Origin: Octopus vulgaris
Taxonomy: Eukaryota
Length of the DNA: 64,000 bases
Assembly: GCA_951406725.2 (NCBI GenBank)
Contig: OX597819.1
Location: 112,530,001 to 112,594,000, forward strand
Direction of reading: 5' to 3'
The notes beneath the pieces were generated by a model. The model made no database searches and was not told the DNA's origin. It was given only the letters and a program-made list of their open reading frames with translations. Every line of letters begins with the position of its first letter. Position 1 is the first letter of the stretch. Below, piece by piece: positions 9,343-60,957 of the stretch. The translations under genes and the position numbers were made by a program.

Positions 9343-9385
9343 AACACATTTCGGCTGATATACCCTCCAGCCTTCATCAGGTGTC
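9343..9385 (-). ncRNA. Degenerate minimal type I hammerhead motif (stem III lost)
   Basis: Minus strand GACAC CTGATGA A GGCTG-gagggtatat-CAGCC GAAA T GTGTT. Confidence 0.5.
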
Positions 9386-10281
9386 TTGGGGAAATTTTGA
9401 ACCTGGGTTCTCATTCCTAAGGTATTTTTTCGATGTTATTATTATTATTATTACTGCCTGGAATCAAACTTGGAATCTTGGGGTTAGTAACCCACACTCT
9501 TAACCACTACGCCATATGCCCACGGGCATTTCAGGCAGTGACCTGAATAATAATGATAATAAAATGTAAATAATGTACATAATTCCTCATCTCTTAAATA
9601 TAGAACTGTGTACATTGGTTTATGTATATGTTGATTAGTGTTAGAAAAACCTGGGTGACATATACAAGTTTCCGTTTTGATTGGGGTGCATGTGTAGAGA
9701 TCACTGTAGCAGTTTTGCATTATATATTTACTTATATTTACTTTTATTAGTAACTCTAATATTCCCGATGTGCTTTTCAAAGCCCTCAAAGACTGCTTCC
9801 AATGTTCCAATTGCTACCCATATCACAATCACTTTCTCAATACTCCAAAGCCCATCTCATCCCTCAGTTGCCAGTATTTTCTAGTTCTTTATTTTTCACC
9901 TTTGAATCACCCGATATTGCAACTTCTATTGTCTTAACTGCTTAACTGCTTTTACATTTTTACTGCTGTGTACAATATCTGGCCATCTTGACTCTATGAC
10001 TTTGTCACATTGTATATGTGTGACTATGTTCTTGGAGAGACTCTTGGCATCAACAAAACTTGACTGGCTGGTCTGTTCTATAGGACTTTGGGGTTGGGGC
10101 CTCTGGATAATTTCCAAAAACCCTTGGCTTGGCAGTCCTATGGGGATGTATTGTCAGTTCAAGATAAACTCTACAGTCATGGAAGTGTTGTTGGCTGAGC
10201 TTACCTGAGATGCATGCGAAGCAACAGAACCGTTCTGCATGTTCTTGTCCGGTGCTTGAGCATTGTTAACTTGTGGGTTTA

Positions 10282-10684
10282 TGTCAACCACTTACAGTCA
10301 CAGGTAGGATGGATCTAGCTATCAGCTGAATCCATTGTGAAGATTGTCCCACTGGCCAGGAAAGGCAGGCAGTTTTCCTTTGTGTGGTGGCCTTAGGGAA
10401 CGAGGTTGTGTGGTGGAGCAGATTGAAAGGGCTGAAGACAGATACTTTTCTCTTTGGTCAAGCTCTCATCAACTTTTCCACTTACTGTCAAACACTTACT
10501 GTCACGTGTAGGATGGATCCAGCTATCAGCTGAATCCATTGTGAAGATTGTCCCACTGGCCAGGAAGGGCAGGCAGTTTTCCTTTGTGTGGTGGCCTTAG
10601 GGAAAGAGGTTGTGTGGTGAAACAGATTGAAAGGGCTGAAGACAGATACTTTTCTCTTTGGCCAAGCTCTCATTAACTTTTCCA
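10282..10684. repeat. Tandem duplication, two units with 204-bp period
   Basis: GTAGGATGGATC at 10304 and 10508; both units end AACTTTTCCA (10480, 10684). Confidence 0.9.
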
Positions 10685-11179
10685 AGCTTTGTTTGAAAAG
10701 GAGAGTGAGGAAGAAGTGCTGCCCCCCAGCAATTTTATTGAAAGGTGGGTGAATGTGGCAAGAATTGTACGAGTGAACAGGCCTACATTAAACATACACC
10801 TGCAAATGATGTGGAGTGGGCACTTGCCCTAGTGGTCAGAGGCTCTATGGTTTTGTGGTATTTCCATGAGCAGCCCTAGGTAGTCTTCCTCCTCTGGAGA
10901 ATTATTCTTTGTTAAAATTTATATTTTTGTAATTTTTTACTTTTTTACACATTTTATGTTACCCCAAGTTGGCAGAATTGTTAGCACACTGGGTAAAATG
11001 CTTAACAGCATTTCGTCCCTCCTTATGTTCTGAGTTCAAATTCTGCCATGGTTCACTTTACCTTTCATCCTTTCAGAGTCAATAAATTAAGTACCAGTCA
11101 TATACTGGGGTCAGTGTGATCAACTTACCCCTCCTCACAAATTTCAGGCCTTGTGCCTACAATTGAAAGGATTATTATT

Positions 11180-11690
11180 AATAGTGTTTGTGGGATGAAC
11201 ATGATGTCAGTTTGAAAATGAAAATAAGTGTATACAAATCTTGTATTTTGAGCACACGTTTATATGGAGCAGAAGCTTTAACTCCTTACTACAGATATGT
11301 AAAGAAACTTAAAATCTTCCACGTGTTGTTTGTGCAACATACGCAACATAAAATGGCAAGATAAGATATCTAATGTTAAGATCTTAGAAGAATGTGATAT
11401 CTCAAGTATCCGAAGCATGCTGGTGAGAATCCTGTGCAGATGGGTAGGATGTTGTTTGAATAAAAGATGTCCACATTCCAAAAATTCTTTCGTATGATCA
11501 AGAAGCATAGGGATATTGTGGCAAAGGAAGACCTTTCCTTAGGTATAAGGGTCAGTTGAAGCAACCAGTAAAATCTCTACAGCTTAATTTGACATCTTGG
11601 GAAAGTTGTTGCCTAGATTGATATGCATGGCGTATAATGTGTCATGATGCATCCAGACAATTTGCGTTGAAGAAATAGAACAATAAAGAA
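11180..11690 (+). mobile_element. Degenerate RTE-clade LINE 3' ORF fragment
   Basis: KMKISVYKSCILSTRLYGAE...KWQDKISNVKILE...RWVG with frameshifts. Confidence 0.65.
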
Positions 11691-13254
11691 TTATATCCTC
11701 TAACCAACAGACATATTTGTCCAATCCCAGGCAAAATCAAAATCATCAATGTCCCTATATCGATTTCATAGCAAAATACATACATGGATTCAAATTACAT
11801 TCCACACATCCATTGCAAGTAGATACAGCTCTTTTTATTTCATTTTTTAAAATTATTTATTTTTGCTATGGCGGCGAGCTGAGAGAGACATTAGCATGCC
11901 AAGCGAAATGCTTAGTGGTATTTCGTCTGTCTTTACATTCTGAGTTCAAATTCCGCTGAAGTCAACTTTGCCGTTCATCCTTTCGGAGTCGATAAATTAA
12001 GTACCAGTTGTGTACTGGGGTCGATCTAAGTAACTGTCACCTTCCCCCACCAAATTTCAGGCCTTGTGCCTAGAGTAAAAAAGATCATTTATTTTTGCTA
12101 TTACTCTCTTCAAACACTCATACATCTGAGCTGATGGGGGTGACCATCATCATTACAAGACCTGCGGATTAGTAGAATAGTTAAAGCATAATAAAAAAAT
12201 ATTTGGGAGTATTTTTTAGGGGATTTTTAAAATCTGATTTAGCATTCTGGGTTGGATTTTTACATTCAAATCCTACAATGATCAACTTTATGTCCTATCC
12301 TTCAGGGTCTGATAAAATTAAGGATCATCAACTGCTTGGGTTTATAGAGTCGACTACCCTTTACTTAATCTGTGTCTAACATAGAAGAAATTATAATTAT
12401 CAGTGTTCTCTTGCTTTCCATCGCATTTCTTTTTTGCCACACTTGTCACAATTAATTAGCATTACTCCGCCTAATTCCAGCACAGATATGATTATATCTG
12501 GGTCGCACCTATCAACTGTTTTATTGTTGTTGTTGCTGTTGTCGTTGTTGTTGCTGCTGCTGTTGTTTTTATTATTATTGTTATTAAGGCAATGACCTGG
12601 TAAGTCATTTTGCACTTCACATAGTTAGTCCTTATTGCTTGTTCTAGTACTGTGCATATAATTGCTTCTGTCTCTGTCTTCAGGTCACACCTCCTCATCC
12701 ATAGCCACTGGTCTTCTGAATCTGTCTTGGTATTTGTATCTCTTTATTATTATTATTATCATCATCATCATCACCATTATTATTATTATTATTATACAAC
12801 TACAACATATATGGAGGTGGCGAGTTGGCAGAAACGTTAGCATGCCAAGCAAAATGCTTTGCGATATTTCGTCTTCCGTTACGTTCTGAGTTCAAATTCC
12901 ACCAAGGTCAACTTTGCCTTTCATCCTTTCGGGGTCGATAAATAAAGTACCAGTTACGCACTGGGGTCAATGTAATCGACTTAATACCTATGTCTGTCCT
13001 TGTTTGTCCACTCTATGGTTAGCCCCTTGTGGAGAATAAAGAAATAGGTATTTCGTCTGCCATTACGTTCTGAGTTCAAATTCCACCAAGGTCAACTTTG
13101 CCTTTCATCCTTTCGGGGTCGATAAATAAAGTACCAGTTACGCACTGGGGTTAATGTAATCGACTTAATCCGTTTGTCTGTCCTTGTTTGTCCCCTCTAT
13201 GTTTAGTCCCTTGTGGGCAATAAAGAAATACATACAACTACAACATATATGATC

Positions 13255-14830
13255 ACCTGGATCAACTGGATCAGCCAGGCTGTCTGGTGCCAAGTTGGCT
13301 TCACTGGCCACAACATTTGGTCCGTTCCCCTCATACTCTTGCCATTCCAAACATTTTTCGTAAAATCATCTTCCCACCTCATTGGCAGTTTTCCGAGTGG
13401 TCTCTTCCACTCATGCGGGTACCACTTGACAACTGCATGGGTTGACCAATTGTCTGTGAACCTTGTGACATACATGACTGGCCCATTGTAGCTTTGAGTG
13501 GTGGTATTCTGCGACAGCGTCCTTCACTCCAGTTCTATCCCTGATCTCCTCATTCTGGATATGATCTCTTAGCAAGATTCCCAACATCAACCTTTCCATA
13601 GCTTTCTGCACCGTAAGCGGATGTTGTTGTTCTCCCTTTTTCAAGGTCCGAGTCTCTCATGCATATAACATTGCAGGCAAGACTGTGCTGTTGAAGATGC
13701 CTTGTCCAGGTCCACCTTCAGCACATCCTTCACTGAGTAGAATGCTCTCTATCTCCAACAACATATGTGGTCTGATCAATAAGTATCTGGACTGTTGCCA
13801 TAGCAATGAAGCTAAAGCATGCAGAGTAAAGCTGCTTGGTGCAGATTGACCTTGAACTATGTTGTGCATGTTCACAAAGTTTTAAGGAAGGCATGTAGCG
13901 TGTGAGGATTGCATTGACTATGACAGAGAAATTTGAGCAGAGAATCTACATTGAATTTTGCCAAAAGCTTCATGATATCTGCTCAGTGGCCTACACAAAG
14001 TTTTCAAGAAGTTTTCATTATTTTTGACACAATCAAGATCTTGTGCAACTGAAACCCAAGTGTCTTTTTGGTCAACTGAAAGCAGTTTTGGCACAAACTT
14101 GGCAGACACATGTCTCATACCCAAATCTTCAGGGATTATGGACAGAGCTGAATCTTAATTAATTTGCACATCCTATGATAACTCATGGATTGTGATTTGA
14201 CGATTTTTCCTCACAGCTGTATGCACATCTGCAATGTTTTTCTCAGTTCTTCTGGTTGCAGATCTCCCAAAACGTTTGTAGATAATGACATTTTTTCAGC
14301 CATCTTGGAAATGTCTCAACCATTCGTACACTTGTGTGCAGCTCATACACTCTTCCCCATACACTTTCTGCAAACTTGCATAGGCCTCTGAGCAGATATC
14401 ACCATGACAACTTTCTCTGTCATGGTCAATGCAATGATCACACGCTACACACCTTCCTTCCAAGCACTGCTGTAAACAGCAGAAGTGAGCTAGAATGTTA
14501 AATCTTAGTGCACATGCACAGCAGAGTTCAAGGTCAGTCTGTGCCCAGCAGCTTTATACTCTGCGTGCTTTAGTTTCGTTACTATGGCAACAATCCGAAT
14601 ACTTCTTGATCAGACCTAGTACATTATATCACACATAAATACAAACTGTCTTACCTCCTCCAGTATGCTCCTAACGGATGTTCAGGTTGCTGGATGATCA
14701 ACTGAGGGTTTGATGGAAGGGATGGGTTGATCTACAGACAAAAATTTGAGGGTTTAGAAACAGCAAATGTTTGGTGTAGGGAAGTGTGATCGGAGCAGGT
14801 TGCTACATAACGACTGCATTGTTGTATTTA
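13255..14830 (-). mobile_element. RTE-clade LINE fragment interrupted by a mariner
   Basis: NSTVLPAMLYA...AMERLMLGI.LRDHIQNEEIRDRTGVKD...KRPLGKLPMRWEDD; LEEVRQFVF resumes beyond the mariner; upstream boundary approximate. Confidence 0.7.
13766..14619 (-). mobile_element. Rearranged mariner element with long inverted 5' ends and TA TSD
   Basis: TIR GGTCTGATCAA.AAGTAT..GGA.TGTTGCCATAG at both ends, flanked by TA; transposase remnant VSAKFVPKLL and MTEK.EQRI.I.FCQKL. Confidence 0.8.
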
Positions 14831-14985
14831 TTGTCTATTAAACAACCTGAAGGTATGTATTGTTCACTTTCATAGCTGTAATTATTATCATTACTTAGCA
14901 CCTAGAACGTCATGCCTGCCTCTTTTGTTTCGTATTGCTCTGTGCTGCTACTCATGTGATCTGTCTGATGCATAGGTCTGTCTCC

Positions 14986-15029
<44 letters not shown>

Positions 15030-15293
15030 GAGAGAGAGAGAGAGAATGAGAAAGATTAAAAGGTTATGGTATCCACCTCCACAACATATATGTATATATA
15101 TATACAGAGAAGGGAAAAGAAAGGATTATGGTTCTCTCTTATACATTACCATATATATATGTGTGTGTGTGTGTGTATGTGTGTGAGTGTATGGGGGTAT
15201 AGGGGTGTACATGTGTGTATGCATGTATTAATATATATATGCACACACATACACACGAACATGCAAACATACATACATATATACATACATACA

Positions 15294-15324
<31 letters not shown>

Positions 15325-15539
15325 CTCTGTGTGTGTGTATTTATGAGACATATATAAGAAAGTGAAAAGATTAGCTTCCCAAAATGTGTGTGTTTGTGTG
15401 TGTATACATATATCTGCATGTGTGTGTGTGTGAGTGTGTGTGTGTGTGTGTGTATGTTTGTTTGCGTGTGTGTGTGGTGTGTGTAAGTGTGTGTGAGCAA
15501 TTAAATTCAGTTTTTAGTTTATATAGCCATAAAAACAGA

Positions 15540-16210
15540 ACATTAACTTAATAAAGGACTCATAACAGGTATAGACTCAGATATTCTAAATATCTGAATA
15601 ATGCGTTGCTAAAGAATATTCGAGGCTGGAATACTTTGTAACTGAAATCAGCAAGAAACTATTGATACTGTTGCAGCGCTCAAGGAATACAATATATTTG
15701 AACTTTACCATGTGAAGAATTCACTTCATTATTCTCGTCTGTCAGGAAAGTTATGTAATGCGAAATAAGAAGTCTTGAAACAAGGTATCTTCTAACCGCA
15801 GTAATTTTCCACCAGAATATATCTTTATATATAAAAGTGAAGTTGTGTGTCTGTCTCCTACGATTTAGATTCCTAACTACTCCCACATTTTGCGGTGCAG
15901 TTTAACCAAAACCGGGTATCTTATAGTCGTGATTCATATCGAGCCCTTCTGGGTATTAGCGCACATCTACGATGAGTCTACGATTAAAAAAAAAATTTAC
16001 CATAATTTTTTTTCCCATTTTTAATGCAATTTTTTGCTATTATATAAGGGAAGTAACTCTCTAAAAATGCTTATATAGTTATTTCCCTTACAAACCCGAG
16101 CAACGCCGGGCGATACTGCTAGTAAATAATAAAACTGCAGCTGAAACCAGTTTGAGAATAGCTTATTTGTTAGCAAAGAAAGAAAAACCATTTACTGAAG
16201 GTGAATTAGT
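15540..16210 (+). mobile_element. hAT (Charlie/Buster, GTF2IRD2/EPM2AIP1-like) transposase fossil, 5' part
   Basis: TVAALKEYNI..YH...YSRLSGK before the Helitron and TSLRIAYLLAKKEKPFTEGEL after it. Confidence 0.7.
15822..16122 (+). mobile_element. Non-autonomous Helitron, copy 1 (internally deleted)
   Basis: A|TCTTTATATATAAAAG start; subterminal hairpin CCCGAGCAACGCCGGG; CTAG|T end; no TSD. Confidence 0.88.
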
Positions 16211-16947
16211 TTATCGCCATTGTCACCAGGAGTTTTGGTTGGCTGTAGAGTAAGTTTATTATGGGTTGTGCTGAGTTGCGTGCTGCAAACAGGAAACTCA
16301 GACATTTGATAATTTATTTAAAATAAAGGCTGTACACAAGCACGCATACATACACACATAAACACACACATACACATACACACACACATACATACACACA
16401 CGCACGAACTTTCATTGTAAGGTGACTTAAGATATAGGTATTGACTTTCGGTGTCTACATTGTACAGTCATCAATGACTTACGCTAGAGACAGGAACAAA
16501 TTGGTCTTGAATGAATACTGAGATGTGAGTTTTACCGAATCTGTTCACTTCTCTGGTTTGTTTTGGGCAAGAGTGAAATAATGTGTCTTTACTGAGAGAT
16601 AAGATGTTAGTCCGCCAAATCTTGCTAAAACTCTACCCTGGTCTGGCTTGCTTGTGGTGATAGGTAAGATGTGTGTTCCCTGCTTGCTCTCAACCTCTGC
16701 CAAGATTCTTGGCACCAGACAAATTATAAATAGAAGAAAACGTCAGAATCTTAAGGACATTCACATTTGTCCTGACTTTGTGGTATAATCTGCAAGTCGA
16801 TTAGTTGATAAATTGGATATACACGTAATGATTGCATGGTCCATTCATGACAACAGCTTGTTAACTTAGAAAATGGAGTTCAAATCCTAGATTTCATTGC
16901 TAATTGAAGAGATATGTCCAGAAAAATCATATAGTCATTGAAAGTTA

Positions 16948-18260
16948 CACTGTACAACAAATTATGAAGTTGACTATGCTAAATTCGAATTTTATAGCTA
17001 AAATTTCCCATCGCGTCAAATTTTCTCCTAAATTACCGACTTAATAACTATGGAATTTAAACCAATTTCCACGATACCATAAATTTATTTTGCTCCCAAA
17101 GTCAGATTAAATATGTCCATTGTAATTAATTCCTGAATATATAATGGATCGGCATGTTTGTTAGCATTATATAATGTATTAATCTATATTTTAGTATTTA
17201 CTTCGTTTATAAGACATCTCATGCTTCAGGTTCCAGTATAGCTGAGCTCCATTTTCCCCTTATACCTGTTTTCCATTGACGCAATATCTTGATGGAACCG
17301 CTCTCCATGTTCATCACTCACATTTACTGTATTCTCTGGGAAGGAGGACAGATGAGAATGAAGAATGTGTATCTTCGGTGACATACTGCATCGGAAATCT
17401 TGGTAGCATTTGATTAGGCTCTCCACTATACTCTCTCAGTGGGCCACTTAGTACTTTCCCAGAACTTCTTTGTATACAACTTTGAATGCATGCCAGGCTG
17501 CTAGCTCAGTTTCATCCATTGTTGCCTCGAAGTCCTCATCAGTTATAAGTTGATAAATCTGAGGGCTTATGAATATGGCTTGTTATGTTGCAGTACTTTG
17601 GTAAATTGCTTCATTAGGCCTAGTTTTATATGCAGTTGTGGCAAAATGATTTTCTCCTTCTTAACTTGTGGCTCATGATTTACATCATGGCATCCTTGTG
17701 ACATAGTTTCCCGAGGTGGCCATTCTGAGCATACATAATGTTCTGATCTGGCCCTGCTGTCCCACTTACAAAGGAAGCACATAAACTTGGTGTATCCAGT
17801 TTGTAGTTCATTAAGTAGGGCTACTACTTGTGAGTCCACACAAATTAGCCACACGTGCTCCTTGTCGACTAAAAGCAAGGTTCTCATACGTTTCTCTTAA
17901 AATGACTGACTGAGCAATTGGAACTGAAGGTATGGTGATCTTCCGAATGTGCAAGAGAACCGCATTTATGCTGTAAAGGGATGCATCTATGAACGACTTC
18001 TACTCATTTGGTTTATAGGTTAGCCCAAGGCCAGTGAATAGGTCAATACAATAAGTTAAATTGTTTTCCAAAGTGAAGAATTGCTGTAGATCTGCAAAAT
18101 GCTTCCTAAATACTGTAATTCAAGCATCTTCATCCAACAGATTCCATTGTTGCGGACTTGAGGCCAGGACTTCACTTTGTTGCTTAGTAAGTGTTAGATC
18201 ATGAACTAGATCATTGAGTTCAGGTCGGGTGATGGGGTGTGGTTTCTTGTCAGATTTACA
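16948..18260 (-). mobile_element. CMC-superfamily (Chapaev3-like) transposase pseudogene
   Basis: GYTKFMCFLCKWDSR (CxxC), LPQLHIKLGLMKQF (LH), KIHILHSHL (HxxxH), VSDEHGERFHQDI; CACTG terminus at 16948; frameshifted. Subfamily call from memory. Confidence 0.7.
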
Positions 18261-18689
18261 ACAGATGTGGACCCATATAACTATAAAAATATTGAGTGTA
18301 CTTCATAATTTTCATAGGTTAGGTTGACAAATACCCTGGTCTGGCTTGCTTGTGATGATAGGTAAGATGTGTGTTTTTACCTATCACCACATTAAAATTA
18401 TATCAAAATCCATTCATAACTTTTAGAGTTGACAGTTTCGGTCCAATCCTGTTTGCAATCAATTCCTACGGAACCATCAGTGTATTTAACGTAAGATAGT
18501 AATTTAGGAGAAATTGGATGGTCACATAAAGAAATGGATGTTATATATTCCTTATCTACACACAAAATACACCTAGTAAAGGTTATTCTCATTTCTGTTT
18601 TTTTTTTTTTTGTTATAGTGTTATTAGTTTTCATGCAAAAACTAAGCAGTTGAAATTACATCATGCACCAAATATACAACAAAGCACAA

Positions 18690-19380
18690 GATTTCCACTG
18701 GTTTTCATTGGCTCTTAATGAATCAATCTTAATGTCAGACTATTCAGTATTTTTTTTTTTTTTTTGAGAATCAACGTTGACTTTAACGTGACAGAAGGAC
18801 ATTCTTCATTAATGAGCGTGCATGGGCAGGGATGGACTGCAGGTGAAAACGTTTTCAAATGCATTTTCAGAGAGGAGGTAAAAATGTCGACAAAGTACAA
18901 TCTGGTTTGGAAACGGCTTAAGTGTATTACAAGCGATAGAGGGAAAGTATTTGAGGTGTAGGAGAAGATTTCATTAGACAAGTCTACAAAGCTTATGATA
19001 GTATAGGATGAACAAAATCTAAGTGATTCACTTCATCATTCAACAGCAGTAAACATTTATGTCTGTCAAGTGAAAATGAGCCAATTTTATCAAGGGTGAA
19101 TTTTATTTAGTTGCATACCATCAATCATCATTAGTTTCCAGTTTTCTTAGGAAATAAAAGGTGGATATAGCGATTTGCTGCACCGCACTGCTGTAAGATG
19201 GTTGGCGAATGGTTCAGTCATCTCACGATTGTTTTGTTTTGGTTTTGAACTTCAGAAAGCGATTGACAATTTTTACGATTGAGAAAATTTTTGTTCAGTC
19301 GCTGCTTGTAAATGGTGAATGGTTATGGAAATTAGCTGACTTAATGATGCATCTTAATGAGTTCAATGTTAGATAACAAA
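18690..19380 (+). mobile_element. hAT transposase fossil, 3' part (same family as 15540-16210)
   Basis: NVDFNVTE...MSVHG..TAGENVF..KYNLVWKRLKCITSD; YSDLLHRTAVRWLANG; EWLWKLA..MMHLNEFN. Confidence 0.75.
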
Positions 19381-20974
19381 ACGTCTCTCCCAATATGCTT
19401 GAATATCCAATAGTGTTGATGTATATTTCATTCAGTTATGTTTTTTTTTTTTTTTGGTAATGGCCTTGAAGAATATTCTGGTATTCAAATATTTGTTCTT
19501 CTATAAGTGTTCACAATTAGATTTTTTTTTTCTCTTTCATACTGGTTCCTTCCATTTCCATTTCACTAATGAAAATTTATGTCGATAGAATTGATCTCAA
19601 AACAAGTATCGTGCTAAAGCTACTCTGATACAAACTAAAGCTGAAACATTAACTCTTGATACCAACCCATCTGAGACTCCCTCTAGTTCTTCGATATAAA
19701 ACGTAATATTTTCAAGCGTTTATATTGACAGTAAATTAAAACCTTCCATCATAATTTTATATATACTCTTTTATCAAGTTATGTTTCAAAGAACAACTGA
19801 AAAGATAAGTTATTTTACTAACTCCTGCCAAATTCTTGATTATTTTTAAAATTCACAGAAGTATGTAGATTGTGTTTCATTATAAATATGATCATGAAAG
19901 AGTGAAATTACATTTAGACTTTGAAGGCACACACACACACACACACACACATTTACACCCCTACCCCATACAAGATATCCCAGTGATAAACTACAGCATT
20001 GTTATCTGAAATGGACAGTATTTCTATTCACGAGTGAGATTTTACTTCATCCATTGATGCAACACTGCCAATATTGTTTATAGAACTGGCGCCGAGCGGG
20101 CAGAAAAGTTGGCATGCTGAGTGAAAAGCTTAGCGGTATTTCATCTGCCATTACATTCTGAGTTCAAATTGCGCCATGGTCGACTTTACCTTTCATCCTT
20201 TTGGGGTCGATTAAATAAGTACCAGTTACGCACTGAGGTCGATATAATCGACTTAATCCGTTTGTCTGTCCTTGTTTGTCCCCTCTGTGTTTAGCCCCTT
20301 GTGGGTAGTAAAGAAATAGGTATTTCATCTGCCGCTATGTTCTGAGTTCAAATTCCGCCGAGGTCGACTTTGCCTTTCATTCTTTCGGGGTCGATTAAAT
20401 AAGTACCAGTTACGCACTGGAGTCAATATAATCGACTCAATCTGTTTGCCTGTCGTTGATTGTCCCCTGTGTATGTAGTAAAGAAATAAGAATCGTGGGC
20501 ATGCCGGACAAAATGCTTTGCGGCATTTCGTCCGCCTTTATGTTCTGAGTTCAAATTCCGCTGAGGTCGAATTTGCCTTTCATCCTTTCATAGTCTATAA
20601 AATAAGAACCAGTTGAACACTGAGATTGGTGTAATCGACTTACCCCTCACACGAAATTGCTGGCCTAGTGCCAAAATTTGAAACCGATATTATTTATAGA
20701 ATTCCAGGTGAACTTAGTATCCATTGGACCTAGAGGGAGTCTGTGTGACAATACTAGAGTCTATAAGAAACTTAGCCCAGTACTCTACTATATTTCATAT
20801 TTCAATATCCCACACTATAAGTACCAGTTACGCAATGGGGTCGATGTAATCGACTTAATCTCTTTGTCTGTCCTTGTTTGGCCCCTCTGCCACCACCACC
20901 CCTGTGGGCAATAAAGAAATAAATATCCCACACTGTGGTATGTATATTAAAACTACGTAATTTTCTATTTCCAG

Positions 20975-23900: not shown

Positions 23901-23903
23901 ATA

Positions 23904-49046: not shown

Positions 49047-51081
49047 TGTAAGGAATATGTGAATATCTCCTCTTGCACTTTTGGGGTGCAAGTTGGTGCA
49101 ATCACTTTCCGTTGCTTTTATATCCAGACTCTACCAGTCAAAGAAACACAAAACGCAGACGTAAAAAATAGATATACTTTATTGTTTTATACCGGTGAGA
49201 AATCAGTGGTATATCTGATGTCCTTGGTTCTGGGCGCGCAAGGCTGAAAGTTAATCGATTGTAATATTTACAATGTTCAGCCGCTAAAAATAGAACGGGT
49301 CAAAATGGCGTCCGGAGGAAGAAGATGATGTCTGCAACAATTCAGGTTAAAAGTCTTCGGCCAAAAGACTGCTGCTATCAAAACCGGAGAGAAAACGAAT
49401 TAAACGTCTGCTTCTATGAAAAGCCTGCCGCTGTCTCGTCAGACGCTAATGGTCAACGCTTTACGCTCCCTTGCCTCTTTGTTAAGGCTCACGCTCCCTT
49501 GCCTCTTTGTTAAGGCTTGCGCTCCCTTGCTAAGGCCACGTCAGCAAGGCCACGTCAGCTAAGGCCACGTCAGCAAAATTCCCTCTTTCGGACTTCGTGT
49601 ATTCGCGAGAGGGCGTTGCGCGCGCTGTTGTATAGGATCACTACAAAGCTCCCCTCCAGTGCCTAAGCACGAACAACAATTCCTTGTAGTGACCATAAAA
49701 CTCAAGGTGGACACCAGATAACCAAAAATAGCACACAATATAATACATTAAACAGCAAAAAAAAATTCACCTTAAAGGTAAAAAGAGAAAAATACTCAAA
49801 ATGAGCAAAGTTCAATGAGTATTGAACTGTCACTGGGAAGTCAATTGAAAATGTCAAATATAAATAGTTTTGGAAAGTTTTTTCGGCCAGTGAACAGTTC
49901 TGCCTGACCTCGTAACATAAGGTCTGTTCGAGGCAGGCTGCGACGACGAAGGTGGTGTTGTCGATGTTGGTGTTGATAATGGTGCATGTGTAAATAGTGG
50001 TGTTGTCAAAGGTGCATGTGAAGGTTCAACGATGGTTGTGGCAGTGGGGTCATTAAAAGATATGGACACCTCAAAATATGCCCTTTTAAGACGATCTACG
50101 GAGACGGTCTCCGAACGACCGTTAATTTCAAGTTTGAATACCTTCGGCGTGCGAGAAATCACACGAAAAGGTCCTTTATAAGGAGAAACAAGAGGTCCTT
50201 TGACAGAATCATCACGAATAAAAACATGCGTCCAAGAATTAAGGTCTGATGGCACACTAGAAGGAGGATTTTGGTGTCGAGGGTCCATAGGAGGAAGGGC
50301 AGAAAAATATCTGCGTAATCGAGCAACATAAGACTCTAAATTAAGAGACTGTGACTTGTCTGGCACCAACATCGTACCAGGCAATGCCAGTGTGGTACCA
50401 TACAAGAGCTCGGCAGACGAAAAACCAAGGTCTGCTTTAATCGCAGTCCGACATCCAAGCAAGACGATCGGTAGAAATTCAGTCCATGACTGTGGATTCG
50501 GCGAGGCACGCAAAGCGGCCTTAAGTTGCCTATGGAAACGCTCCACCATCCCATTAGAAGCAGGGTGGTAACTTGTGGTGCGTATATGATGCATCCCCAG
50601 GATTCGTGATAACTCACGAAACAATGCAGACTCGAATTGTCGACCACGATCTGTGGTTAAACTGTACGGTACACCATACCTCGAAATCCAATTAGATACG
50701 AAAGCCCTCGCAACAGTTTCAGCTGAAATGTCTGCTATAGGAATAGCTTCCGGCCAGCGTGAAAAACGATCAATTCAGGTTAAAAGTCTTCGGCCAAAAG
50801 ACTGCTGCTATCAAAACCGGAAAGAAAACGAATTAAACGTCTGCTTCTATGAAAAGCCTGCCGCTGTCTCGTCGGACGCTAATGGTCAACGCTTTACGCT
50901 CCCTTGCCTCTTTGTCAAGGCTCACGCTCCCTTGCCTCTTTGTTAAGGCTTGCGCTCCCTTGCTAAGGCCACGTCAGCAAGGCCACGTCAGCTAAGGCCA
51001 CGTCAGCAAAATTCCCTCTTTCGGACTTCGTGTATTCGCGAGAGGGCGTTGCGCGCGCGCGCTGTTGTATAGGATCACTAC

Positions 51082-51082
<1 letters not shown>
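49047..51082 (-). mobile_element. Internally deleted Ty3/Gypsy LTR retrotransposon
   Basis: 3' LTR 49047-49645 (TGTAG...TTACA on -), PPT ACTGGAGGGGAGCTT adjacent; partial 5' LTR 50771-51082; inserted in (TA)n. Confidence 0.93.
49854..50774 (-). pseudogene. Gypsy integrase C-terminal part (rve core and GPY/F), N-terminus deleted
   Basis: [12 protein letters not shown]...[10 protein letters not shown]...[17 protein letters not shown]...SPYKGPFRV; open for 307 codons including the stop; HHCC finger and first catalytic Asp missing. Confidence 0.92.
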
Positions 51083-51120
<38 letters not shown>

Positions 51121-51639
51121 CCATGTATTTGAGTAAACATTGATTGACGTAGCAATTCATGATGGGGTTGGCCGGAGTTTTTGATATGATATATTTTGTT
51201 AATCTGTCGTATTATTGACAGGCACATATGTTCGACGAATTGACATGTCTAGCTGCTCTCTCCTTAACAATTAATCTACAACGTTCTCACCTCTTCACCA
51301 GCTTTTATCTACCATTCTTTTTCTCTCGATAATGTCTATATCTTAACTATTCATCAATGAATTATTATGTATCATATTGGCACGAGCAAGGAAGTGTTGA
51401 AAATGTTTATTTTTGTATATACGTAGCAATGACGGTTTCTATGGAACGCTTGCGTTAAGAAAAACTAACACTTCTGAGTTTGTCGTAGGTTAGCTTACAC
51501 GCTGTTAAATAACTTCCTTTTGAAATTCTCCCTGAGGATATATCCAATTCACTGGTTTCGAATATGGAATTTTATTTCTGTAAATGAAGAATCGTGTGTG
51601 GAAACAGCTGTAGGTAGGAATTTTGATGTATGAATTTGA

Positions 51640-52007
51640 CTGTCTTTAAATAAAATCTCCACCTGTCTAACTCCCGTGGACATGTTTACAAAGTCAGAAA
51701 ACAGCACAGCTCCCATGACTTTCAGAAACATTTGTTCACGCTAAGAGTTGCCGAAGCATGGAACAAACTGCCGGCATCAGTTGTTAGTTGTCGGAGTACT
51801 GCATCCTTCAAAACTTCCATGCTTCCTGAGATTCGCCAACACTACACCTGATTTTCTCCCCTCCATACACACGCAAGCATGTATCTGACTCATACACTGT
51901 TCGCTTTCCAGACATTTGTACATTACTGCATATACTCTATACACACTTTTGACAAGTTGTGGTGCACCTGAGCACTGTATACAATAATTTCATTATTATT
52001 ATTATTA
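51640..52007 (+). mobile_element. CR1/L2-type LINE 3' end
   Basis: FTLRVAEAWNKLPASVVSCRSTASFKTSM followed by a short 3' UTR and (ATT)n tail. Confidence 0.75.
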
Positions 52008-52209
52008 AAAACATCTGTACATAAATCTTTATCCATTTTCTTCATTTTATTTAAAAAGGTTTATTTAAATACTTCTACGTTTCGGTGATAAACTAATATA
52101 CTTGCTTTTCTCTGAACGCTGGTATAAACCGGTGAACTAGGATGTTCGCATCTCTTAAGAGACTTTAGTACCTTCACTAATTAAAATGAAATATCTATGT
52201 ATGTATTAT

Positions 52210-52465
52210 GGAGATGTACTTGCATAGCAAGTAACTTGATCTGACATCGTGTACTAAAACAAAAATAATTATTTCAGCTTTTAAGATATTTGTAAGTTAT
52301 GCAAGAACACACAAAAACTGCACCAAGTTTTGTCAGTGAACAGGTCGCGGTTTCAAACCGACGAAAATATTTTGACACAAACTAAATTTAAATGTTGAAG
52401 TGAAACTGATGGTTTTTGTGTGTTCTTGAATGGCTTACTAACATCTTCCACGCTGCAATTGTTTA
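52210..52465 (+). mobile_element. Second copy of the G3-C8 hammerhead repeat (motif 52331-52377)
   Basis: TGTCA GTGAACA G GTCG..CGAC GAAA ATAT TT TGACA; same leader GAGATGTACTTGCAT.GCAAGT as 47780. Confidence 0.72.
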
Positions 52466-52575
52466 TATATATTACTACCAGATCTGTACATATTTTACAA
52501 CTCAAAATTATTATTATTATTATTTTGTTTTTTGTTTTAAAGTAAAGTCTTATTAAGGAATTATTTTCCTTTCAG

Positions 52576-52633
52576 AGAAGCCCTTGTTGAAACATTCTTC
52601 AGTAGAAAAGCTCTTCCAATGGTAACAGTCAAG
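52576..52633 (+). CDS. KMO: KMO coding exon 8 (EALVETFFSRKALPMVTVK)
   Basis: ttttcctttcAG/GTAAAT; 58 nt, phase 2 to 0; keeps the frame. Confidence 0.92.
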
Positions 52634-52997
52634 GTAAATATGAGGAGTTATCCCCCCTCGCATTTTTTTTTTTTTTAGTTCAGCATTATGATTTTCAGAC
52701 GCTGTTTAACTCCATGCTCACCTTGACTGAGAAACCAAAAGCATTCCAGCCGTGACCAACTTTATCTTGGTAATGCATCAAACAACAATTTAACCCCAAG
52801 TCACTCTTGATCGAGTAGTCCTATGATCAAAAACAGTTCCAGCTGTGACCATCTCGTCTTGGCATTGATTTCTGGAATGTGCGACTGATATTTCTAGCAG
52901 GTTGAGCGCTATCTCCTCATTTTTGTTGTTTAACACTGATGACCAAGATCAAAGATATTCTAGGCGTGACCATCCAATCTATTTAATTTTTAGATAT

Positions 52998-53545
52998 ACA
53001 GGATGTCCCGAAATTAAGGCAACCGAAGTTTCGGGCTTTAATAACTATCAATAAATGTGATAAGATATGAAACTTATACATCATTATAAAAGTTTAGTGT
53101 GTCTTCTTTTTATTTCAGACTAAATAAATCCAGATTTATAAATTAGATAATGGCTATAGACCAAAATACAATCATAACTTTTTACAAAGGAAGCGAAAGT
53201 AATACATCTATAGCAAAACAACTTTAAATTAACCGAAGAACAGTCTGGAAAATTGTCAAGAAATTTCAAGAGACTGGTTCCATTGCTGAACGACCTGGAC
53301 GTGGCCGAAAAAAGAATATGCAGACCCCTCAGCTTATCAAAAGTATCGAAAAATAAGATACAGTGAAATCCTCGATGTTCCGCCAGAAAACTGGCTACCA
53401 CAGCAAAAATAAGCCGAACATCGATGTATCGAGTGCTGAAGGAGGATCTCAGGATCCACCCCTACAAGACGATCTGCTGTCATGAGCTCATGCAAATTTA
53501 TAAGGCCATGAGACTGGAGAGGATTCGTCTTATCCTGCGTCACAT
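52998..53545 (+). mobile_element. 5' half of a Tc1/mariner-superfamily element
   Basis: TA|CAGGATGTCCCG terminus; HTH remnant INRRTVWKIVKKFQETGSIAERPGRGRK...SARKLA..KISRTSMYRVLKEDLRIHPYK. Confidence 0.7.
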
Positions 53546-54169
53546 TGCTGAAAGCACGCTGCTCAACCAGGTGGTCACTCCAGGATACTGAAATTTCCAG
53601 ATACTATATCTCGGGACTCAGGACTGGATATTAGAGATCTGAACACAGCAATGCAGGACCGTGTAGTGTGGAAAGAGGTTGTCAATGGGGTTCCGATCAA
53701 CCATAAGTTGGTCGGAGGATGATGATGATGAGTAACATTATTAATTCTAAGAATGGTTGTAGAAATGAAATTATAGCAGCTATGGAAAGTTAGTTTGGGT
53801 GTAGAAAATGTTTAAAGAGCTGTTACCTGTTGTGGATCTTTAGGTTGTTTGTTTCAGTTAATGGTATACTGGGTAGTTATAGTGGTGTGTTCACCTTTCA
53901 ATTGGTACTGTGATTTGATTAACGATTTTTGTGACGAAATGGAGCAGGATTTGTCTCAGGTTTTTTGGCAAAGAGGGAGTATAGGATGATGATAGCGACG
54001 ACAACGACGACGATGATGACGACAATGATGATGATGATGACGACGACACATGAGGTGTGTTGACATGTATGTGCATTCTGAGTAGGTTTCCTAATGCTGC
54101 TACTGCTACCGATGAAGATGATGAGGACGACATCTTAATCTCTTTCTTTCTTTGATTCTTTGATTCTAG

Positions 54170-54301
<132 letters not shown>

Positions 54302-54443
54302 TGACAGGGTAAGGAGCCGAGTCGCCCAACTCGTAGATTGCGAGTTCATATTTCACATTACACATTTGCCTAACACTTTACCACTCCTGTCTCCGTTCAT
54401 AGTTTCTCCTGCAGAAGTTGATTAACCTTCGCATGCTCAAATA

Positions 54444-55323
54444 CACTGGTTCTCAATCGGGGTCGATTTGACACCTGAGGTCTTTATAAGAGTTTTGGAG
54501 GTCCACGCACGCAAAATAATAAACTGGGGATGCAGAGTTCGTTTTATATGTATTGGGCTGTCCGGAAAGTTCGTGCCGATTTATAGTAGCTTACCTTTTG
54601 ACATATTTTAGAACATAGTTCAGTCTATAAAATAGCATTTGACTGCACCTCCATTTAGAGCACAGTTTAAGCTATCTTTTCGTGGAAGAAGGTTTATGCT
54701 CTTATAACCTGTTTTAATTCTGTAACCTTTTAAAATGGAAGATAAGAAAGTTCATTTTCGGCACTTGATGCTTTGGGAACCAGACAAAAATTGCTGCAGC
54801 TCGGATGGGATGTGTTACCCCAGTCTCTATATTCACCTGATATTGCTCCTTCGGATTTCCACTTATTCAGGTCTCTGCAGAATAGTCTTAATGGTAAAAA
54901 TTTCAATTCCTTGATGACGTAAAAAGATACCTTGATGAATTCTTTGCCATGAAGCTACCTCAATTCTGGGAAGAGGGTATTTTCAAGTTAACGGAAAGAT
55001 GGAGACGCATTGTGCAATAAAATGGTTAATATTTGGTTGATTAAAAATGTAATGGCAAGTATTTATTGACCTTTTTCTTTCTTTTAAAAATCAGCACGAA
55101 GTTTCCGGACAACCCAATATTTATTGGAAGAAACAGCTAGGATTCTTTCTCTAACATTTTACGTAGTTCAGCGTACACAAGTTTAATGTGTGAAAAACAC
55201 AATAGGAATCTTGAATGAAGTATCTATAAAACTAGTTTTTAAACACCGAGTGGCAGTGGGGTTCCACCGGAGTAGAATAGTAATCAAAAGGATCCATAGA
55301 TAAAGAATGGTCGAGAACCCCCG
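54444..55323. mobile_element. hAT-type MITE hosting a nested mariner
   Basis: Degenerate TIRs CACTGGTTCTCAATC / GGTCGAGAACCCCCG. Confidence 0.55.
54553..55117 (+). mobile_element. Internally deleted mariner
   Basis: About 30-bp TIRs TTGGGCTGTCCGGAAAGTTCGTGCCGATTT with TA TSD; MEDKKVHFRHLMLWE joined to LGWDVLPQSLYSPDIAPSDFHLFRSLQN. Confidence 0.9.
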
Positions 55324-55720
55324 TGGTAGCTGAACATCAAGTACGCCAGCACTTGATGTGGAATGAAACGATTCTGCACACTAGTTACGTTCACTCACAT
55401 TCTTGATGCAATTCTTCCATGAACAGAGACAAAGAAAATAAGTTGCTATTTCCAGCAAATCGAGCGATTACCAAGAGACTATTTAAACAAAATATTAATG
55501 CAAAAATAAGTGTTGTGCAAAAGAGAATGCAGAAAGTTTGCATCCACTGAAGAAACGAACCCGTGTCTCATTAGCTTGGGTGGGCATTTCTTTCGCGTAA
55601 CTCGCCCCTAAAAGTTTCTTAGAATTCTCCATTTTTATATTTACTTATTTTGTTGGTTTAAGAGACAAACAAATCGAAGAAATAAAACGATATACATATT
55701 TCACTTATTATATTTGACAG

Positions 55721-55778
55721 GGATTTGAAGACTGTATTGTCATGAGTCAGTTCCTTGACGAATATAACAATAATTTCG
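55721..55778 (+). CDS. KMO: KMO coding exon 10 (GFEDCIVMSQFLDEYNNNF)
   Basis: GFEDC motif; tttgacAG/GTAAGT; 58 nt, phase 0 to 1. Confidence 0.95.
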
Positions 55779-58700
55779 GTAAGTTCTCTTTTCTTTATAT
55801 AACCGACATACCATATTTTCTCATTCATTATCACCTTTGAAAGAGTAAATTCTAAATACAAAAGTTAAAATTCAGGGGAGGTAACTCAGGTTCGACTATT
55901 TCTTACATCAAGCATAAATAAATACATCTATCATCGTTTATCACAGATTCATTCATCAATGATCCGGAATAACACGGCACGATCAATTGTGAACCATGTT
56001 ACGCTAATCCTGAATTAATCTGTGATAACACGGGTCAGCAATCAGTCAAAGATTCTACTTGCTAAGATATATTTCAGTTATTTATTTATTGTTTACAAAT
56101 CATATGTTATTAAATTTTATTCTAAACATTTTTTTCCAAGCACGAAATAATATTAATCTGTTTAAAAACTGCCAGAGGTTTATTTGGGTAAGTTAGTGGT
56201 GGTGATGGTGGTGGGGACAACTTGGAATCTCGGAACCAAACCTAATATTCCCATGTGTTCAATTATTTTATTTATGATGGTGTTGGTTGTTGTTTTTTTC
56301 TTTTACCAAACCCCCGTGATAAACGAAGATAGATGTATTCTGTTGTGCATTTCTGTTATCATTCCTTCAAGGCGATATATTGAATTATAAAATACTTTGG
56401 TGCCTCTGTTATATCTAATTTGCTTCTTCATTACTTTAGTTGCAAGTTTGCAATCTCAGTGACTATTCAAGTTAAGATATATATAAATTCTATTTTATCA
56501 AAGAAACAATATTTTCCCATTTTTTAAATGAGTTATTTTAATACTATTTAGGCGATCTCATCCCATTTAACTTACCATGTACTAGGTGAGTTATGAATGA
56601 TAGGAAAAACGAAATAACTTCCACCAAAATCGAACAGAAATGTTCGCATATAATGCACTATTTTTTCAAACATGGCTGACAACAAAACTAGTTGATAGTA
56701 TAAAATGCATTGGAATATTGATCTCAAATTTTGGCACAAAGGCAGCAAGTTCGGGGTGGGGGGCTAATAGATTACACCGGCTCTAGTACTCAACTGGTAC
56801 TTGTTTTATCGGCCCTAAGAGGATGAAAGGCAAAGTCGACCTCGACGGAATTTGAACTCGGAACGTAAAGACAGACGAATTGCTGCTAAACATTTTGTCC
56901 ACTGCGTTAACAATTCTGCCAGCTCTTCACCTTACTTCGCTAATATAAATCTTTTATACTATAGGCACAGTGCCTGAAATTAGGAGGACGAGGCAGTCGG
57001 TTACATCGACCCCAGTACTCAAACTAGGACTTATGTTATCGACCCTGAAAGGATGAAAGGCAAAGACGACCTCGTCGGAATTTGAATTCATCCACTAGGC
57101 TACAATGAGTTAACAACTCTGCCATTGCGCCGCCTTATTTCGCTGTATAAATATAAAATAAATCTCAGTCGGTTTTGACGATATGTATTCAATTGTTTTG
57201 CGCCGCCTTATTTCGCTCTCTTTACTCTTTTGCTTGTTTTACTCATTTGATTGCGGCCATGCTGGAGCACCGCCTTTATTCGAGCAAATCGACCCCAGGA
57301 CTTATTCTCTGTAAGCCTAGTACTTATCCTGTCGGTCTCTTTTGCCGAACTGCTAAGTTACAGGGACATAAACACACCAGCATCGGTTGTCAAGCAATGT
57401 TGGAGGGACAAGCACAGACACACAAACATATACACACACATATATATAAGCATATTAAAAGGGCTCTTTGGTAGTGAAAAGGTTAGGAACTACTGATGTA
57501 GACCATCACCATTATAATCTGACTCAGTTTTATATTCGGGTTTTGACTGAGTCCAAGGGCGATAACTGAGATATCTTGATACCGTTGACACTTAAAATAT
57601 AGATTCAATTCCTGTTCAGAACTGTTTATTCTCTTCTTCCTCCAATTCACTTATTTACTCATGCGGCAAAATATGACACAAAGAAATCATTTTACCCATA
57701 ATTCACTATTTTATTTATTTAAAGAGTGGAAGCGAGTGACTTAGTAGTCAGGATGTTGGACGTATGATCGTAAGATTGTGGTTTCGATTTCTGGAGTGGG
57801 CGACGCGTTGTTCTTGAGCAAAACACTTCATTTCACGTTGTTCCAGTCCACTCATTGGGCAAAAATGAGTAATCCTGCGACGAACCGGCGTCCCGTCCAG
57901 GTGAGAATATATATACGCCATGGAAACCAGTAAACCTGCCTTATGACTCGGGGAAGATATTGGATGTTTTTTTTATGGATCTTTTCACTTTAACCGGCAG
58001 ATTTAAAAAATGATTTTTTGTAACTAAACACTTTTAAACTTCGTATACTGATAGAATGTGTCACATAAAACATCTTTTTCTTTTGGCGTTCTTGAGAAAA
58101 TTGTGTAGTTTGTAAGCTATTTGTTGTTAAATTTCTCGTATTTCGGCAATTTCAACCAATCAATGACATCTATTGAGGTGAATACAATTTTGGTTTTAAA
58201 AAGATTATTATTTAGAGTGATGGTAAGGACACCTGGCGTGCAGAGGCGTTAGATCGTTGGACAAAATTCTTTATGGCATTTCTTCCGACTCTTTACGTTC
58301 TGGGTTCAAATCACACTGAGGTTAATTTTGTCTTTCCTTAAATGTATTGTGTAGGCCAATCACTATTTAGAGAATCAAAGAGTCTTGTGGCCATACTGGG
58401 GCACCACCTTCAAGAATCAATCCTAGTACTTGGTCTATTGCTTTCTTTTGCCAAAACACTATGTCACAGGGACGTAAACACACTAACAAAGCGGTAGTGA
58501 GGAACAAAGTTATACACATACATACGACGGGCTTCTTTCAGTTTCCATCTACCCAAATCTACTCACAAGGTTTTGGTCGGCCAAAAGGGTGTAATAAAAG
58601 TTGCTTGCCCAAAGTGCCATGCTGTGAAACTGAACCCAGAACCATGTAGTTGGGAAGCAAACTTCTTACCACACAGCCACGCCTGTGCTTACCAAAATAC

Positions 58701-59212
58701 CTATTTCTTTACTACCCACAAGTTGCTAAACACAGAAGGGACAAACAAGGACAGACAAAGGGATTAAGTCGATTATATCGACCCCAGTGTGTAACTGCTA
58801 CTTATTTAATTGACCCTGAAAGAATAAAAGGCAAAGTCGACCTCGGAGGAATATGAACTCAGAACGTAACGGCAGACGAAATACCGCTAAGCATTTCACC
58901 CGGCATGCTAACGATTTTGCCAACTCACCGCTCCACAGTTAAGATACATTGGATTATGTTATACAAAAACTACAGGGCTGTCACGATCAGAATGTCTTTG
59001 TCGTTCAAGGCCAACATGAACAACTTTATTAGCTTCAGACGAAAACAAGAGCAGAACTGACACGTTGAAATAATAATTAACATTAAAGAGTTATCTTAAC
59101 TATTGTTTTCCTCAACAAATGTCGTCCCTGAGCCTTTTGAAAGGGTTTATGTATTTGTCCTTACTAAACAATATCACTTCTACATTTTCTTTTTCTTCTT
59201 AAATCTTTGCAG

Positions 59213-59295
59213 AAGAAGCGTTACCAAAATACACTGAGTTTCGACATGTTGATGCTGTGTCCATTTGTGATTTAGCCATGTATAATTATGTTGAG
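59213..59295 (+). CDS. KMO: KMO coding exon 11 (EEALPKYTEFRHVDAVSICDLAMYNYVE)
   Basis: ICDLAMYNYVE motif; ctttgcAG/GTAAGT; 83 nt, phase 1 to 0. Confidence 0.95.
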
Positions 59296-60320
59296 GTAAG
59301 TCTGTTTCATCACTCCTCTACCTTTTGATGCTCTTTCTCTCTCCCTCTCTCCTTCTCTCCTCTCAAATATAGTTGTATGTACCACGTGATCATAGCCTTA
59401 TGTCCTTTTATATTTTATAAGAAAACATTCCAAATGATCGAACTTAGTCATATGCACTGTGGAGACAGTTATATGTCCAAATGGAGTTGTATGTCCTAGC
59501 ATAATTATACGTCACATGTGAACATTATTCCACGTTCGTGTGTACAGAGAAACACTTAAATATGATGTATACATCACCGTGGTGCAAGGCCAGCAATTTG
59601 GTGGTGGTGCTGCTGTAAGTCGATTACATCATCCCCAGCACTCAGTTGCTGCTTATTTTATCGACCCCGAAAGGATGAAAAGCAAAGTCGACCTCGGCGG
59701 AATTTGAACTAAGAATGTAAAGACGGATGAAATGCCGCTAAGCAGCGACGATTCTGGCAGCTCACCGCCTTATATAATATTAAATATTAGTTTGTCTGTC
59801 TTCATGCTCTGAGTTCAAATTCTGCCAAAGTCAACTTTACCTTTCATCCATTCAAGGTTCGATAAATTAAGTACCAGTTGCATACTGGTGTCGTTATAGT
59901 TGGCGAGACCTCTCCCCAAAAATTTCGGGCTTTGTGCCTAGAGTGGAAAAGAATATTAAATATTGGTTTCAAATGTTGGCACAAGGCCAGCAATTTGGGG
60001 TGGGGACGGTGTTTAGTCGGTTACATCGACTCCAGTGCTCGACTAGTTCTTATTTTCTTGACCCTGAAAGGATAAAAGTCAAAGTTGACCTTGGCGGAAT
60101 TTGAACTCAGAATGTAAAAGCAGACGAAAAACCTTTAAGCTTAATGACATGCTTTATGATAATAAATATTAAGATCTAAACTCATACGTTTTGAATATTT
60201 ATTATTCTTTTTAGTTATTTTTTTTTAAAGAATATTTCGCTTTATGTTATAATGATATTTACGAGACCTTTATCCACTTCTCTGATATTGTGTTCTTATA
60301 ATGTTTTTTTTTATGGATAG

Positions 60321-60422
60321 ATGCGGTCTTTGGTGAATTCTAAATTTTTTCTGGTGAGGAAACTTGTGGACAGCTTTCTCAATAAACTGTTCCCCCATCA
60401 CTGGATTCCACTCTACTCAATG
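60321..60422 (+). CDS. KMO: KMO coding exon 12 (MRSLVNSKFFLVRKLVDSFLNKLFPHHWIPLYSM)
   Basis: MR..VN and WIPLYSM motifs; ggatAG/GTAAAA; 102 nt. Confidence 0.95.
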
Positions 60423-60552
60423 GTAAAACTTTTAAATATCTATCTATCTATATCTATATCTATATACTTATATGTGAGTGTGTGTGGGTATACATATGTA
60501 TATATATATATTTATAGATATATGTATGTATGTATATAAATATATATATATA

Positions 60553-60957
60553 TGACTGAAACCAGTACTATGTTTTTTATGATAAAATTATTTTAGTATT
60601 TTCTTCCCTATATATATAGGGAAAATAAGTCAAGGGAGAAAATACTAAAATAGTTTTATCATAAAAAACATTTTAGTACTGGTTTCAGTCATTGAGACTT
60701 TTTCAACTCTAAGAATTCACAACGACCTTGAACCCACGAGAGTAAAAAAGAGAGACAGAGACAGGCAGAAACAAGAAAAATGCCCCTTGTATTTGAATAC
60801 GAGGCAATATTCTTTTAAAAAACTTTTCATGTAATTTTTTCAAAATTTAATTGTTTTCCATACTTAGTATTGAAAAAGTCTGAATGACTGAAACTGGTAC
60901 TGAAATGTTTTTTATGATAAAATTATTTTAACATTTTCTACCTTGACTTTTTTACCT
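60553..60957. mobile_element. Penelope-like inverted/tandem repeat cluster with U3-A8 hammerhead motifs
   Basis: Motifs at 60673-60712 (-) and 60864-60903 (+): TTGAAAA AGTC-T(C/G)AAT-GACT GAAA C(CA/TG)G TA CT; partial third copy at 60553. Confidence 0.7.

Follow-up and report, generated by a model that had tools for sequence, protein, structure and literature searches.

The pair between positions 3 and 8 of the hammerhead core serves catalysis in the known structure of the ribozyme. Hammerheads of Penelope-like elements (PLEs) cleave weakly and as dimers, and minimal hammerhead ribozymes (min-HHRs) have been described in the end repeats (pseudo-long terminal repeats, or pLTRs) of metazoan PLEs (Cervera and De la Pena 2014, PMC4209133). 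We analyzed a 64,000-nucleotide stretch of Octopus vulgaris DNA (contig OX597819.1, positions 112,530,001 to 112,594,000; here, "the window"), taken from a 2.8-Gb genome that is rich in microsatellites. An earlier reading made from the letters alone (the sequence-only reading) had proposed at least six hammerhead-bearing repeat families within one gene of the window; we found all six at the places claimed and a seventh, with the core UUGACAA (21949), that had been overlooked. The repeats are very probably decayed, 5'-truncated pLTR copies of several retroelement families. Two of these are Penelope-like by direct linkage, and the others are likely to be; every one has a minimal type I hammerhead that is predicted to self-cleave slowly. 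The majority sequences ("majorities") of the six have the cores CUGAAGA (F1), CUGAUGA (F2), CCGACGA (F3), CUGUAGA (F4), GUGAACA (F5), and UUGAAAA (F6). Only F1 and F2 have the canonical CUGANGA core; F3 has C4, F4 has U6, F5 has G3-C8, and F6 and the seventh family, F7, have U3-A8.

The octopus families share with the min-HHRs of PMC4209133 a type I layout, a short stem I, an extra nucleotide that separates position 9 from 10.1, and a palindromic mini stem III (here and below, published systems are represented by the available parts of their texts). Also shared are the multiplicity of families within one genome, the predominance of solo truncated copies, the occurrence of opposite-strand pairs, and a U3-A8 variant, which that work already has with ~1,300 hits in Schistosoma. 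The available part of its text mentions no cephalopod and no family-wide G3-C8, U6, or C4 core, and it is there that the octopus families differ; F3 and one F6 subfamily differ in addition by A-U at 10.1-11.1, whereas F4 and other families keep G10.1-C11.1. For PAc, a Poseidon element of Anolis (Frangieh et al. 2024, PMC11167929), the hammerhead lies, as here, upstream of fixed internal reverse transcription start sites, and targets are AT rich. The PAc hammerhead is protein dependent, C3G/G8C partly rescues it, and cleavage is dispensable for insertion in vitro. G3-C8 is a laboratory mutant in PAc, whereas F5, a family with >1,600 exact matches, carries it naturally. Natural core variants compiled by Perreault et al. 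(2011, PMC3088659) include U3-A8 covariation, A6C, a viroid U4C, and a U10.1-U11.1 mismatch such as F7 has; these are rare single cases, and G3-C8 and U6 are unnamed in the available text, Fig. 5 aside. Non-long-terminal-repeat retrozymes (PMC7229834; 10.64898/2026.07.22.740005) are likewise nonautonomous repeats that bear a type I hammerhead and have kinship to PLE pLTRs, but they are arrayed in tandem, their motifs are canonical, and they have circular RNAs, whereas the octopus copies are dispersed truncated stubs.

PLE min-HHRs and natural U3-A8 and C4 variants are therefore already published, U3-A8 covariation in PLE hammerheads among them. Neither family-wide natural G3-C8 nor family-wide U6 was found in the literature searched, which left aside figures, one supplementary file, and Lunse et al. 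2017. The last of these, which PMC6765202 cites, reportedly describes PLE-associated hammerhead variants with a reduced stem III and dimer cleavage. No description of the octopus families was found in the same literature, mostly seen as listings and again without that study.

Families and their majorities

Six family queries gave 1,074 to 3,213 first-look candidates each in the genome, and 30 loci per family were aligned. All majorities, F1 to F7, have the type I minimal-hammerhead layout (stems I, II, and III, GAAA, and U16.1-H17); the window copies at 9343 and 26666 do not. Stem III is palindromic or nearly so in the families, as the sequence-only reading held, except that its 10-nt palindrome for F5 takes in letters of the core and stem I, stem III itself being AAUAUU. 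The F4 majority has the stem II sequence GAGC, and F4 subfamilies differ at N7 and H17.

The F2 majority, built from intact copies only, has the stem III ACGU. Among 51 aligned F2 copies, 26 were intact and 24 were deleted at the cut site, a share that is biased because the query itself carried the deletion. Exact patterns matched 6,326 times genome-wide for F2 and 1,646 times for F5 (with the core left free); both reversed controls gave 0. Both G3 and C8 were retained in 89 of the first 100 F5 matches, and no other compensated pair occurred. A tRNA-like segment precedes the F2 hammerhead in 7 of 8 unbiased copies; neither ARAGORN nor Rfam at its gathering threshold called it.

Several further observations concern F5 and F6. 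The 5' ends of F5 copies cluster ~20 nt upstream of the core, which suggests a fixed transcript start, and several F5 inversions switch within the 7-bp stem I. A pyrimidine-rich run ending in CAG directly precedes the F6 and F5 cores (window 60858-60870; locus L214) and resembles a splice acceptor. In Drosophila virilis Penelope, an intron ends at stem I; no splice joint before the F6 core was seen in contigs of four runs, the kind of which is uncertain. A second, unrelated G3-C8 candidate (GUGAUCA, L237:6724-6760) has a very short stem II and two copies only.

Complementarity at positions 3 and 8

The descriptor used for the search itself demands the hammerhead layout, and therefore only the positions left free count as evidence. 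We ran it with positions 3 and 8 free, at a score of at least 9, on an unbiased 1-Mb sample (100 segments of 10 kb at fixed positions) and on four shuffles. C-G was found 31 times (1.0 in shuffles), U-A 8 times (3.0), G-C 4 times (1.5), and A-U twice (5.0), and the remaining 12 combinations together numbered 23, versus ~23 in shuffles. At the level of copies, there is a strong excess only for C-G, and the 3-8 signal stems from the family majorities.

For these majorities, 441 hits in 2.05 Mb were clustered, the majority of each cluster was tested, and 12 clusters with a failing majority were excluded, leaving 36, or 35 once a duplicate F2 cluster was merged; many clusters consist of two copies and could reflect chance or overlapping fetches. 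The 35 majorities have 19 C-G, 8 U-A, 2 G-C, 1 A-U, 1 U-G, and 4 mismatched combinations at 3-8. Watson-Crick pairing was thus present in 30 of 35 (or 31 of 36 if both F2 clusters are included; P < 1e-5 by permutation). Homologous elements switch from C3-G8 to U3-A8 in two comparisons, L133 with L084, in which stem III also swaps one palindrome for another, and L260 with L357. Between subfamilies, an F4 stem I pair changes from C-G to G-C and the F6 pair 10.1-11.1 from A-U to G-C; these changes in stems I and II, and that in stem III of L133 and L084, were read off alignments without a formal covariation statistic. The complementarity across families that had been proposed from the window alone is supported by the wider sample.

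The published min-HHR descriptor holds cuganga fixed, and the sequence-only reading expected CUGANGA searches to miss most of these elements. In the unbiased 1 Mb, 84 copies were assigned to families, a count that omits the duplicate F2 cluster and another cluster likely due to chance. CUGANGA majorities account for 25 of the 84 and other cores for 59 (23 with U6, 19 with C4, 8 with U3-A8, 7 with G3-C8, and 2 with U3-G8). Most copies would indeed be missed, but chiefly through positions 4 and 6 (C4 or U6 in 42 of 84) and not through the 3-8 swap (17 of 84).

Linkage to Penelope-like elements

Long F6 copies extend into reverse transcriptase (RT) and GIY-YIG sequence, and F6 lies downstream of most of 30 loci found by protein search. 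In the full-length elements L214 and L223, the F6 motif is present in both end repeats, ~4,410 nt apart, around ORF1 and a second open reading frame (ORF) that joins RT, a CxxxxCxxC linker, and an endonuclease (EN); the domains are RVT_1 and GIY-YIG. The linker in L214, CGRPNCGIC, has the CX2-5CxxC form (with no tree against named references) that marks the Neptune/Nematis clade (PMC8557442). By these sequence features, the F6 parent is a Neptune-type PLE. In 11 of 30 GIY-YIG loci, the ORF is followed downstream by the UUGAUAA core of a sister family of F6. A young Neptune-type family (L337, L342, and others) has many intact 781-amino-acid frames, with a UUGAUAA (U3-A8) hammerhead downstream in L342.

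F2 is linked through L166, which holds a broken Penelope/Poseidon-type ORF (RVT_1, E = 2e-9, without a CxxC linker; EN domain identified by eye, with no Pfam match). After this ORF come, in turn, a tRNA-like piece, a run of AAT, and the F2 motif. That F2 might be a separate, tRNA-headed short interspersed element (SINE) is disfavored because the tRNA-like piece comes after the ORF stop in L166.

Copies of F1, F3, F4, F5, and F7 have fixed 3' ends, mostly running into (TA)n, and variable, truncated 5' ends with inverted or partial-tandem arms (inverted arms being rarest in F4). Ends of both kinds have been described for PLEs (PMC8557442). A Penelope-like origin is thus shown by direct ORF linkage for two of the six families first proposed and is likely, from insertion anatomy, for four. 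We rejected the classification of F5 as a miniature inverted-repeat transposable element (MITE), since its inverted arms vary in length and end at variable points.

Conservation, folding, and breakpoints

The cores had been expected to be better conserved than their flanks, and this was so in mixed subfamilies, where non-CpG mismatches in core and tail were 18/714 and 424/4,999 for F4 and 4/361 and 152/1,425 for F6. Several observations weigh against a maintained, Penelope-derived ribozyme. In young copies, the core is barely better kept than the tail (F3, 0.026 versus 0.029; F2, 0.028 versus 0.032), as is expected of neutrally decaying insertions, and in unselected F3 copies it is no better (5/75 versus 18/299). 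The lowest-energy monomer contains stems I and II together in only 3 of 6 majorities, and F6 alone has the stem-III dimer as its dimer of lowest energy. Four of the 35 clusters, all of two copies, are mismatched at 3-8. Within the 2.05 Mb examined, no ORF was linked to F1, F3, F4, F5, or F7. Lastly, the cut site is missing in 9 of the first 100 F2 matches in order of position.

Discordant inverted arms at this 3-nt F2 deletion (L157, L165, L170, L180, and L265) prompted the idea that it is a footprint of cleavage at each insertion. It may be one, but a 3-nt slip in the next repeat is similarly frequent (6 versus 9 of 100), and linked combinations are present.

In 159 copies not picked via the motif, 6 of 27 breakpoint events fell at the predicted cut (expected share, 0.077; P = 0.015, post hoc, the hypothesis coming from the same data, with F1 and shared subfamily indels omitted). 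One of these events is possibly inherited, one lies at a palindrome, and an equally high peak occurs near -34. An inverted F2 insertion at L283:780-860 has the start of each arm exactly at the predicted cut, and one arm has three tandem 17-nt restarts. Such breakpoints may hint at cleavage in vivo.

Motif copies in the window and the host gene

The features of the window are collected in Table 1. The motifs, spanning stem I to stem I', begin exactly at 9343, 33224, and 38933, where the sequence-only reading had placed them, and its multiple copies of CUGUAGA (cores at 24039+, 24551+, 39279-, and 45554-), GUGAACA (47957- and 52336+), and UUGAAAA (60706- and 60870+) are all present, as is the UUGAAGA copy without stem III (U3-G8; 26666-26696). 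The motif at 9343 is not intact as had been supposed, since the deleted nucleotides include U16.1/H17.

Table 1. Hammerhead motifs, associated elements, and host gene in the 64-kb window
Feature	Position	Strand	Remarks
Kynurenine 3-monooxygenase (KMO) gene	~1876..61480	+	Coding exons at ~1876, 20978, 25052, 39438, 44612, 47331, 54209, 55721, 59272, 60408, 61457
F2 hammerhead remnant, core CUGAUGA	9343..9385	-	3 nt deleted at cut site
tRNA-like segment (A-box, B-box-like) of F2 end repeat	9454..9521	-	Upstream of F2 hammerhead
F7 hammerhead, core UUGACAA (U3-A8), stem III ACCGGU	21949..21993	+	Apparently intact; second copy in locus L232
F4 hammerhead, core CUGUAGA (U6)	24035..24070	+	Stem III decayed to AUGU
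F4 hammerhead, second copy	24547..24582	+	512 nt downstream, same sense; a mismatch in stem I; ACAU as stem III
F6 remnant, core UUGAAGA	26666..26696	+	Stem III and the cut site lost in a deletion of ~12 nt
F1 element, partial tandem of 434-nt unit	32988..33611	-	Core CUGAAGA; hammerhead at 33224-33297, in which stem II has a long arm; ACCG-UU-CGGU as majority stem III
F3 element, 5' arm inverted	38856..39008	+	Hammerhead 38933-38970, core CCGACGA (C4), stem III ACUC-U-GAGU
F4 hammerhead copy	39248..39283	-	
F4 hammerhead copy	45523..45558	-	
F5 element with inverted 5' arm	47832..48059	-	Hammerhead 47914-47964, core GUGAACA (G3-C8), 7-bp stem I, 5-bp stem II, stem III AAUAUU
F5 hammerhead, second copy	52329..52379	+	
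F6 inverted pair	60552..60966	.	Core UUGAAAA (U3-A8) in both hammerheads, at 60674-60709 (-) and 60867-60902 (+); stem III ACCGGU in the majority

The window copies are decayed. Most have stem mismatches, 4 of 9 folded better than shuffles (z < -2), and a strict descriptor recovered 3 of the 11 motifs of the sequence-only reading, a looser one 4 of 11 plus F7. Rfam gave 160 matches in the window at E <= 10, and the best 150 of them include no hammerhead; at the gathering threshold, Rfam gave no match in two loci. The stem III strands AUGU (24035-24070) and ACAU (24547-24582) of two F4 copies are exactly complementary, in the same sense and 512 nt apart in the KMO pre-mRNA, and therefore a dimer could form; the complementarity is probably a coincidence of CpG decay.

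The KMO exon at 25050-25214 matched KMO chains in PDB (E = 1e-11); the other exons are presumed, from KMO motifs. All hammerhead motifs of the window are intronic, since KMO coding exons flank them. The KMO context is incidental, and the gene most likely gains nothing from the copies in its introns. Nor is the clustering in this gene special: 12 copies per 64 kb compare with ~84 per Mb elsewhere, only about a twofold difference. Other repeats of the window include three abundant SINE-like families (22, 19, and 12 copies, e.g., 2688-3151, 7762-7970, and 6728-7102), a long terminal repeat retroelement integrase (rve) fragment at 49854-50774 (-) flanked by ~310-nt direct repeats (49338-49645 and 50771-51082), and a minisatellite (33718-34308; ~20 units of 29 bp) that adjoins the F1 element.

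Discussion

If the repeats derive from Penelope-like pLTRs, as we favor, a source element would be transcribed, its RT/GIY-YIG protein would nick AT-rich or (TA)n DNA, and reverse transcription would begin at a fixed point 50 to 170 nt downstream of the hammerhead. Premature stops and changes of strand would then give rise to short stubs, whether direct, inverted, or partly tandem, that nearly always hold the motif. The stubs would be by-products, and the motif would be maintained as a structure in the source elements, judging by compensatory changes in all three stems and the 3-8 pair and by free change at N7 and H17. Its role would probably be slow, assisted trimming of the transcript, either by the protein of the element or in a dimer joined through the palindromic stem III. 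Little demand for catalysis would account both for slower cores (U3-A8, G3-C8, C4, and U6) having become the norm in families and for the frequency of F2 copies without the cut site.

A possible but doubtful alternative is that the variant-core families (G3-C8, U6, and C4) are catalytically dead and that the fold persists by descent or as a protein-binding, template, or translation signal. Changes at core positions 4 and 6 reduce activity in assays, as far as the available text of PMC3088659 goes, and in that of PMC11167929, catalytic mutants leave PLE insertion in vitro unaffected and no reads end at the cut site. The ~9% of F2 copies that lack the cut site share linked changes, which suggests inheritance. 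Dead cores fit poorly with the retention of 3-8 pairing, GAAA, and UH over ~30 families and through the homologous switches, the 3-8 pair being a catalytic one that C3G/G8C partly rescues in PAc (PMC11167929).

It is rather unlikely that some families, above all F1, are nonautonomous retrozymes that spread via small circular RNAs from double self-cleavage. F1 forms partial tandems of its 434-nt unit, L102 and L113 each hold two same-sense hammerheads, 6 of the 27 breakpoints touch the predicted cut, and a 2026 preprint, in its available part, derives animal retrozymes from PLE pLTRs (10.64898/2026.07.22.740005). Partial tandems are, however, ordinary in PLE anatomy, F1 reaches at most 1.4 to 2 units in the loci examined, and the motifs are minimal, versus the canonical type I motifs of retrozymes (PMC7229834, available text). 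No long tandem arrays of the retrozyme type occurred in those loci. Chance matches inside unrelated repeats or MITEs are highly improbable: the descriptor gives 31 to 37 hits per shuffled Mb and F5 elements resemble palindromic MITEs, but the descriptor is satisfied by family majorities as well as by single copies, with 3-8 pairing where these positions had been left free, F5 arms end at variable points, and direct PLE linkage refutes chance for F2 and F6.

With Penelope-like pLTRs as the preferred source, a bolder view can be put forward only tentatively: this genome may be a natural mutational scan of the hammerhead core, with at least 30 families that are mostly noncanonical and together number of the order of 200,000 copies (by extrapolation of 84 per Mb), in which G3-C8, U6, and C4 cores would be working, protein-assisted ribozymes under selection and DNA breakpoints would record cleavage in vivo. 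Censuses based on CUGANGA can overlook ~70% of the copies in such a genome. The young 781-amino-acid Neptune-type family (L342) is a good source for tests of protein-assisted cleavage, and families fixed for supposedly slow cores are ready constructs with which to ask whether cleavage is selected and whether the PLE protein rescues weak cores.

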